Shown piece after piece: positions 23,340 through 24,330 of a DNA stretch of 42,237 bases (within the stretch, counting starts at the first letter, position 1; every line of letters begins with the position of its first letter). The notes below the pieces were generated by a model. The model worked only from the letters and a program-made list of their open reading frames with translations. It ran no database searches and was not told where the DNA came from. The stretch is from a virus (lineage: Duplodnaviria > Heunggongvirae > Uroviricota > Caudoviricetes): positions 1 to 42,237 of IMG/VR virus record IMGVR_UViG_2880361019_000002. One strand, written 5' to 3'. Made by a program: the position numbers and the translations under genes.

Positions 23340-23594
23340 TACGGCTTGTTGGGCTTGTTTAATCCAGTAACTGCGGGGCTTTAAGGCGAGTTTTTGAATC
23401 TTAAGTTTATCTTTCTGTTTCTGCTCCTCTCGTCGTCGTTTCTTCTCTGCTGCTTTTTCCGCTTTTTCGCGTTCTTTACTTCGTCGTTCGAGTGCTATCT
23501 TGGTTCCACAAATCTCATTACACAAATATTGATTTTGATATTTTGGTATAAACCATTCATTGCAACATTTACATTTCCTTCGATAGATTCGCAT
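23340..23594 (-). pseudogene. ninG: NinG (Rap-like), N-terminal fragment
   Basis: [15 protein letters not shown]...[32 protein letters not shown] matches lambda NinG N-terminal half; interrupted by IS1. Confidence 0.8.
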
Positions 23595-24135
23595 AAGTGC
23601 TCCTTTCGTTGCCGGAAAAATCACCGTAATACTTATCTCGGGCTTCTTCAGCAACTAATACCGCTAACTCCAGATCATCAAAGCATCCGAAGTGTTTACT
23701 CTTGCCATGGAATCCTAGCCTAACATTCCATTTTTTCTGTCGTTTGTGCCAAGTAACCCCTCTGCAACCTGATTTGCTATTCTTTCGGATCCTTATATTT
23801 CTTGAATTTTCTATTGGCAGGCATTCTCTTAAATTTTCTGGCCTATTGTCGGTCCTAATTCCATTAACGTGGTCAATTTGACCAGCAGGCCAACGATTAT
23901 GAGTTATGTAAAAAACTAAGACGTGAGTTTTATATCTACGCCCATCTATCATGATCATTGAATAACCGTTGGAATCAAAAGTTCCAGCAACACTATTTAA
24001 TGCTATCCTTCCCTGAGTGGGAACTTTCCATCTAAATACCCCGGTAGATTTATCGAAACTTAGTAACTCAAATATCCTTTTAACAGTTAAATCTTCTCTT
24101 TTACGGTTACATCGTCTTCGCGCTGGTTTAGCCAT
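23569..24135 (-). CDS. HNH homing endonuclease with AP2-type DNA-binding domain
   Basis: HNH motif [16 protein letters not shown] and C-terminal [33 protein letters not shown]; start set at MAKPARRRC, which duplicates the lambda NinG N-terminus. Confidence 0.7.
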
Positions 24136-24330
24136 CGCCTTCTTCCTCCGTAATGGTTTTCTGAATTTGGCCACCTGAACAGAGCTCACCAAAGCTATGG
24201 ATGTCGGTATTTCCACAATACCAAGATGGCGAAAATAACTGCATGATAAGCCTCAGGGAAAAGGGAAGACACTACCCCCGATAATTCAGAAACAAATCGA
24301 AATACATGAACTAAAGAAAAAATCACAACA

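Follow-up and report, generated by a model that had tools for sequence, protein, structure and literature searches.

A probable free-standing HNH-AP2 homing-endonuclease cassette lodged in the 5' end of ninG of a lambdoid prophage

Free-standing phage endonucleases are known to spread by 'intronless homing', examples being T4 SegF with gene 56, SegG with gene 32 and MobE with nrd. An endonuclease may also interrupt a phage gene without splicing, as in Aeh1, where nrdA is split by mobE. Endonuclease insertions within phage genes have been described as 'fractured genes' (PMC2677866), and in ShiLan an HNH gene lies out of frame within a methylase gene (PMC11855218). In phage epsilon34, gene 31 consists of the N-terminus of eaE fused in frame to a putative HNH homing endonuclease (PMC2629481). 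HNH-AP2 proteins form a described homing-endonuclease family of phages, cyanobacteria and protists whose AP2 domains favour GC-rich DNA targets (PMC10448857).

The locus described here is probably a free-standing HNH-AP2 homing-endonuclease cassette that has lodged in the 5' end of ninG (rap) of a lambdoid prophage. It lies in a stretch of 42,237 nucleotides (the whole of which is called the window below), in which the nin-region genes are all located on the minus strand and follow the lambdoid order Dam, ninE, ninF, ninG, phosphatase, Q. The span given by the original prediction, 23340-24216, was correct and comprises the longest HNH open reading frame (ORF) together with the ninG fragment as far as IS1. 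The features of the locus are as follows.

26912..26960, minus strand: 5' fragment of ninF, its first 49 nt, placed by aligning window 27668-26912 to positions 2793-3549 of the E. coli TUM1880 locus (L005), where ninF starts at 3501
24149..26911, no strand: AT-rich insert, 2763 bp, 34.5% GC, replacing 101 bp of ninF
24128..24148, minus strand: 3' remnant of ninF, 21 nt, stop codon TAA at 24130-24128, inside the 42-bp lambda match
24107..24135, minus strand: captured ninG start, ATG, codons 2-9 and 2 nt (MAKPARRRC), now the N-terminal leader of the HNH protein
23511..24106, minus strand: foreign cassette, 596 bp, 37% GC, in place of lambda 42461-42524
23569..24135, minus strand: coding sequence of the HNH_3/AP2 endonuclease, 188 aa, HNH_3 at about residues 68-107 and the AP2-like part at about 123-171
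23600..23606, minus strand: ribosome-binding site AAAGGAG of the regenerated ninG start, within the HNH 3' coding region, read from the sequence
23511..23594, minus strand: regenerated ninG 5' end, 28 codons, 27% GC, four Cys kept, the final 84 nt of the cassette
23340..23510, minus strand: lambda-type ninG codons 33-89, 99.4% identical to lambda 42525-42695, running to the IS1 target duplication
22572..23339, plus strand: IS1, 768 bp, with insA at 22627-22902 and insB at 22821-23324; duplication TACGGCTTG at 22563-22571 and 23340-23348
22215..22571, minus strand: remainder of ninG, 96% identical to lambda 42687-43043

Several properties of this locus are those of intronless-homing systems. 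The cassette gene is outside any intron or intein, its presence is polymorphic at a fixed site by or within a conserved phage gene, and carrier and empty alleles differ in the adjacent coding sequence, a difference presumed to give immunity; by analogy, it may also spread via recombination between co-infecting relatives. Unlike those endonucleases, however, it is located inside a gene and not between genes, its host is a temperate lambdoid phage, and cutting is in this case a prediction. It also borrows the ribosome-binding site, the ATG and the first 9-10 codons of the host gene, and it carries a full substitute 5' segment (ribosome-binding site, ATG and 28 recoded codons) instead of a few resistance polymorphisms. 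With Aeh1 nrdA/mobE, the fractured genes and ShiLan it shares an endonuclease placed within a coding gene, no intron or intein, and a host function that is kept. The host proteins in those systems are split in two, joined by a split intein or supplied with an in-frame loop, whereas here ninG is restored as one ORF by the recoded 5' end downstream of the endonuclease. Epsilon34 gene 31 is likewise an HNH endonuclease of a P22-like/lambdoid phage to which the N-terminus of a resident phage gene is joined in frame, but the operon, the fused gene and the HNH lineage are all different; it was mentioned in passing and without population data, and no regenerated 5' end of the host gene was reported for it (PMC2629481). 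We found no description of the ninG start-capture arrangement in the literature, and databases annotate HNH and ninG separately.

The boundaries of the cassette were set by blastn of the window against lambda, which yielded three matches. One of them (window 24148-24107, lambda 42419-42460; 42 bp, 95% identity, pairwise E 3e-14) contains the last 21 nt of ninF including its TAA, overlapping the first 29-32 nt of ninG. The other two lie in ninG, at window 23510-23340 (lambda 42525-42695, 99.4%) and window 22571-22215 (lambda 42687-43043, 96%). Thus, 64 bp of lambda (42461-42524, ninG codons 11-32) have been exchanged for 596 bp (24106-23511). Alignment to empty-site lambdoid genomes, which the original prediction had proposed as a check, placed the junctions at lambda 42460|42525 in the window, in E. 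coli TUM1880 and in Salmonella Infantis (locus L007), and the same pair was found in all 61 loci analyzed below. The empty site is present in lambda, P22, Oslo and HK544. Using as query a chimera in which lambda ninF was joined to the HNH 5' end of the window, we detected 30 E. coli genomes in which intact ninE-ninF leads directly into the fused HNH gene and then into ninG. TUM1880 and the Salmonella Infantis prophage also have intact ninE-ninF immediately upstream of the fused gene, and the leftward match continues into ninF in 22 of the 61 loci. Empty sites, exact boundaries and ninF-intact carriers therefore support the earlier proposal that an HNH gene is located inside the start of ninG and that the ninG start has been regenerated.

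MAKPARRRC at the start of the HNH ORF had been recognized as the N-terminus of lambda NinG, and it is so at the DNA level, in a syntenic match that takes in the ninF stop and the ninG ribosome-binding site. The 3' remnant of ninF overlaps this captured ribosome-binding site (GAGGA, 24148-24144) and the ATG. The HNH ORF extends at most from 24216 to 23569 on the minus strand, and the conserved ATG at 24135 gives a protein of 188 aa; the gene is annotated as 567 nt in both RefSeq and GenBank. Other starts were considered and rejected: from the ATG at 24135 to the conserved N-terminal region no further ATG, GTG or TTG occurs, and the GTG at 24216 is located in sequence that ninF-intact loci do not have. 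Relatives of the HNH protein, none above 47% identity, align only from about residue 12-16, so the captured leader lies outside the HNH family. These comparisons show, as far as sequence can, that the endonuclease has no initiation region of its own, that it is predicted to be translated from the ribosome-binding site and ATG of ninG, and that its first 9-10 residues are those of NinG. An imperfect 20-nt tandem direct repeat at 24077-24117 spans the left junction (minus strand, GAAGACGATGTAA|CCGTAAAAGA / GAAGATTTAACTGTTAAAAGG; TRF score 52, which 5 of 2000 crude shuffles at the fixed site reached). It may be a footprint of the fusion of HNH to ninG codon 10, or it may be due to chance.

A second, divergent ninG start had also been claimed, and it is indeed present at 23594; however, it is not a simple duplication, but a foreign, AT-rich, recoded 5' segment that belongs to the cassette. 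The gene read from it shares 26 nt with the 3' end of the HNH gene, in a different frame, and AAAGGAG precedes the start. Both parts of the interrupted gene match Pfam NinG (PF05766), the N fragment with 71.6 bits and the C fragment with 82.3 bits. When the first 84 nt of the regenerated gene were aligned to lambda, about 55% of aligned nucleotides were shared (alignment score 41 vs 11.3 +/- 6.9 for shuffles). The cassette has a GC content of 37% and its ninG part one of 27%, compared with 49-52% for the flanks and the displaced lambda segment. NinG ORFs are intact in relatives, at 603-612 bp. At the level of sequence, the new ribosome-binding site, the ATG and the 28 recoded codons are shown to restore a predicted full-length NinG with four N-terminal cysteines. 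At position 23524 the window has T where most other copies have G, which changes NQYWC to NQYLC and removes a Trp conserved in natural NinG (NQWWC).

We compared NinG allele types over the first 100 nt of ninG in five loci (L001, L068, L069, L070 and L071). Natural NinG N-termini are of two types, one found in lambda, P22 and Oslo (CKNxEC...CGTKIALE) and the other in 933W and SI23 (CKIC...HGTQLALE), and a near-identical 40-nt block is common to both. The cassette-borne 5' end has 933W-like spacing and a 933W-like first 30 nt. In the block GAATGGTTTCACCC-GCATTC---AATCAGTGGTGGTGC of both natural types, nearly every codon is changed in the cassette, while the four cysteines are retained. The natural right flank of the cassette is of the lambda/P22 type in 61 of 61 loci, and no cassette was seen among them in 933W-type alleles, which share the candidate block.

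Of 5426 complete E. coli genomes, 538 had matches to the cassette-borne ninG 5' end, at 569 places in total, and an HNH gene was annotated under the match in each of 60 rows sampled across the ranking of these matches. In phage records, tblastn with the cassette ninG start gave identities of about 60% at most, except for four records of cassette-carrying Stx1 phages, and a large protein collection contained only E. coli fragments of the same sequence. Accordingly, no close match to this 5' end that lacked the HNH gene was found in the sampled E. coli rows or in the phage records and protein collection searched.

The protein encoded by the cassette matched HNH_3 (PF13392) with 42.4 bits against a cut-off of 24.8, and PHROG 99 ('HNH endonuclease') with 1.4e-71; its AP2 match (PF00847, 21.7 bits) was under the Pfam cut-off of 33.3. 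Residues D88, H89, N101 and N110 are invariant in the family alignment, and the catalytic motif is intact in the copy of the window, so that the protein has the D-H...N...N motif in HNH_3 that is found in the HNH-AP2 family and in I-HmuI (PDB 1u3e). An AlphaFold2 model had a pLDDT of 86.7, with low confidence only in the first 10 residues (leader pLDDT 58) and the tail. The top Foldseek match of this model in PDB was 1u3e (99 columns, probability 1.00, E 8e-3), and model residues ~123-171 matched AP2 folds, including 1gcc (rmsd 1.3 A, 51 columns, TM 0.67 on target) and 7wq5, although with E-values of only 0.03-0.09; the E-values of the fold search are weak throughout (0.008-0.09), and a sequence search of PDB gave one weak AP2 match only. 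The model thus suggests an N-terminal, HNH-containing part similar to I-HmuI and a C-terminal part with an AP2-like fold. I-HmuI itself is intron-encoded and has a helix-turn-helix in place of the AP2-like part. The relatives found belong to Jersey-like, T5-like and other phages, where they are annotated as homing endonucleases, and the cassette protein differs from all of them in its identity of no more than 47% and in its 10-residue leader derived from NinG. No donor and no relatives between 47% and 99% identity were found in a search of 5.8 billion proteins, in a distant DNA search of phage records, in species-representative genomes or in IMG/VR.

No promoter-like site was found within the cassette region, and no intron-like RNA matched Rfam at E up to 1 in window 23300-24700. 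Therefore, the HNH gene is probably transcribed with the nin operon and is borne by neither an intron nor an intein. An intron or intein origin was also rejected because ninG restarts with its own ribosome-binding site and ATG in another frame.

To analyze the spread of the cassette, we collected 61 full cassettes with identical junctions from IMG/VR and other fetched loci; ninF is intact in 22 of these and 39 have the AT-rich insert. An earlier map of mismatches in five loci was uninformative on co-conversion and is superseded by this set. Nucleotide diversity (pi) of the 61 cassettes was 0.0041 (maximal pairwise difference 1.2%), and that of the right flank was 0.034 (maximum 11.7%, 57 loci). 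For 21 ninF-intact loci, the values were 0.038 for the left flank, 0.0032 for the cassette and 0.054 for the right flank. The cassette is thus about ten times less diverse than the flanks (pi 0.004 vs 0.034-0.054), and diversity returns 8 nt beyond the right boundary and ~80 nt to the left of the left boundary. A Salmonella carrier had flanks 98.1% identical to those of the cassette-free Salmonella phage Oslo and ~95% identical to the flanks in the window, whereas its cassette was 99% identical to that of the window (Fisher p 3e-5 for the contrast). Carriers include O157:H7 prophages, Stx1 phages and Salmonella, and many genomes had several places that matched the ninG-region query. Judged from these sequences, recent spread of a functional cassette as one unit into diverged ninF/ninG backgrounds of E. 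coli and Salmonella is well supported. The low diversity reflects rapid spread irrespective of its cause, as selection together with ordinary lambdoid recombination would give the same pattern.

The HNH reading frame was intact in 61 of 62 full-length copies. We observed 12 synonymous and 13 non-synonymous variants (pN/pS 0.29, binomial p 0.003), the common ones being mostly synonymous, and this pattern of substitution shows purifying selection on the predicted nuclease gene. In one copy (L064) the HNH gene contains a 1-nt indel, and singleton variants among loci L009-L063 change N97 to T or N101 to S in the HNH motif, or C9 to R in the NinG-derived leader. These changes suggest occasional decay of the nuclease.

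The prophage in the window has been further modified. As had been proposed, ninG is additionally split by IS1, a 768-bp element at 22572-23339 flanked by the 9-bp duplication TACGGCTTG. This copy is ~98% identical to annotated IS1A copies, and removal of IS1 and one copy of the duplication in silico restored an intact NinG of 200 aa. The IS1/ninG junction was absent from the complete E. coli genomes of the collection. Two remnants of ninF remain in the window (49 nt at 26960-26912 and 21 nt at 24148-24128); the one next to the cassette is only 21 nt because the later 2.76-kb insert replaced 101 bp of ninF. As read from the alignments, the window is a derivative of a ninE-ninF-HNH-ninG arrangement, and the AT-rich insert came later and is not part of the HNH cassette. 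IS66-family transposase and IS21-family istA/istB genes interrupt the tail-tip (J-like) gene (1406-2944, 4672-6974 and 2860-4491/7032-7916), and together with IS1 in ninG they indicate a decayed, IS-riddled lambdoid prophage. In E. coli Z1323CEC0014 (L006, 2554-3927), an independent IS2 insertion was found in the regenerated ninG 5' end; thus, cassette-adjacent ninG has been hit by insertion sequences at least two times. Match H221, which resembled a different right junction, is actually an IS2 insertion in the same ninG 5' end.

The AT-rich insert codes for a 590-aa ORF on the plus strand (24681-26453), which has no Pfam match and belongs to PHROG 9230, of unknown function. Of the 61 cassette loci, 39 contain the insert, as do the Stx1 phages SH2026Stx1 and AU6Stx1; in O157:H7 an IS30 remnant cuts it short. 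The hexamer AAATAG is repeated perfectly (x 5.8) at 24330-24364, within a 75-aa hydrophobic ORF on the minus strand (24195-24422), for which no family match was found. The length of the AAATAG stretch varies between genomes (matches are split in two pieces with different spans), which may mean that the number of repeats is variable. The window lacks ninH between ninG and the Ser/Thr phosphatase gene (window 22210-22214 vs lambda 43044-43232); it is present in lambda, TUM1880 and SH2026Stx1. The nin region of TUM1880 has two further HNH endonuclease genes (1784-2371 and 6363-6875 of L005), one of which lies upstream of ninB, next to a partial copy, and the other downstream of Q, and lambdoid nin/Q regions seem to collect HNH nucleases.

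The following course of events may be proposed for homing at this site. The HNH gene would be expressed along with the nin operon during lytic growth or induction, and the enzyme would nick or cut ninG alleles that lack the cassette, within the displaced 64 bp or close to them. For the site, which is a guess, the block GAATGGTTTCACCC-GCATTC---AATCAGTGGTGGTGC, conserved in both natural types of ninG, is the best candidate. A co-resident phage with the cassette would then serve as template for the repair, by which the cassette would be copied in, and the recoded AT-rich ninG 5' end would make the carrier immune. In its fullest form, this proposal describes an actively sweeping, self-immunising gene drive of lambdoid prophages, in which the HNH-AP2 enzyme cuts the GC-rich zinc-ribbon-coding block common to nearly all natural ninG alleles, the recoded 5' end serves as a functional, cleavage-resistant replacement, and the element has already entered Salmonella and ~10% of complete E. 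coli genomes, O157:H7 and Stx1 phages among them, and sets recombination boundaries in the nin region. We give this full form about an even chance of being correct.

Alternatively, the cassette could be a lambdoid module that is shuffled passively: a single illegitimate recombination would have created it, ordinary homologous recombination would have spread it, and the nuclease would be useful to the phage or the host in some other way, such as the exclusion of competing phages or action on a different target, with ninG left uncut. Nin regions are highly mosaic: at this locus ninH and the 2.76-kb insert may each be present or absent, and the Q gene varies. The presence of two more HNH genes in the nin region of TUM1880 fits this explanation too, because it means that the region gathers HNH nucleases generally, and the diversity contrast fits selection as well as drive. 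It is, however, hard to explain in this way why the cassette lies within a gene and brings along, in recoded form, precisely the segment that it has displaced, which is expected if that segment is the target. Both boundaries are also invariant in 61 loci, and the nuclease belongs to a recognised homing-endonuclease family. We therefore regard passive shuffling as rather unlikely, though as the main rival and a possibility to be taken seriously.

The HNH gene might instead be an inactive relic, a frozen accident with no present activity. The prophage in the window is decayed, ninG being interrupted by IS1 and the tail gene by elements of the IS66 and IS21 families, and the indel in L064 and the few singletons at motif residues N97 and N101 point in the same direction. 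Yet 61 of 62 copies are intact with a pN/pS of 0.29 and mostly synonymous common variants, the window's own copy has an intact catalytic motif, and the cassette is far younger than its flanks, so that a relic appears very improbable. The condition under which the original prediction was to be abandoned was a coincidental MAKPARRRC match, with the HNH gene having an unrelated 5' end of its own. A coincidence would have to account for 42 bp of syntenic DNA at 95% identity that includes the ninF stop upstream of the ATG, for a match that runs leftward into intact ninF in 22 of 61 loci, and for HNH relatives that have no such leader, and it can for practical purposes be dismissed. A homing-endonuclease cassette in the start of ninG is thus the reading that we prefer.

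The element is of a known kind, a free-standing homing endonuclease, and what is unusual is the arrangement, in which the start of the host gene is captured and its 5' end replaced. A specialist would not find it very surprising, and its central activity is a prediction. It nevertheless provides another route by which a gene may be interrupted harmlessly, distinct from introns, inteins and gene splitting: the start is taken over and a recoded 5' end is supplied. Since ninF and ninG overlap, there is no intergenic space at this site, yet the endonuclease enters without killing the host gene. For annotation, it should be noted that the N-terminus of this 'HNH endonuclease' is derived from NinG and that the start of the neighbouring NinG is not native. 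With 538 carriers among 5426 complete E. coli genomes, and with its occurrence in Stx1 phages, O157:H7 prophages and Salmonella, the cassette is both common and clinically relevant. Because the sequence around it is much older, it may represent a live case of exchange between temperate phages that is driven by an endonuclease. The empty site exists in lambda, P22 and many lambdoid phages used in the laboratory, and lambda has the predicted target, which makes the gene-drive reading directly testable in the best-understood phage system.
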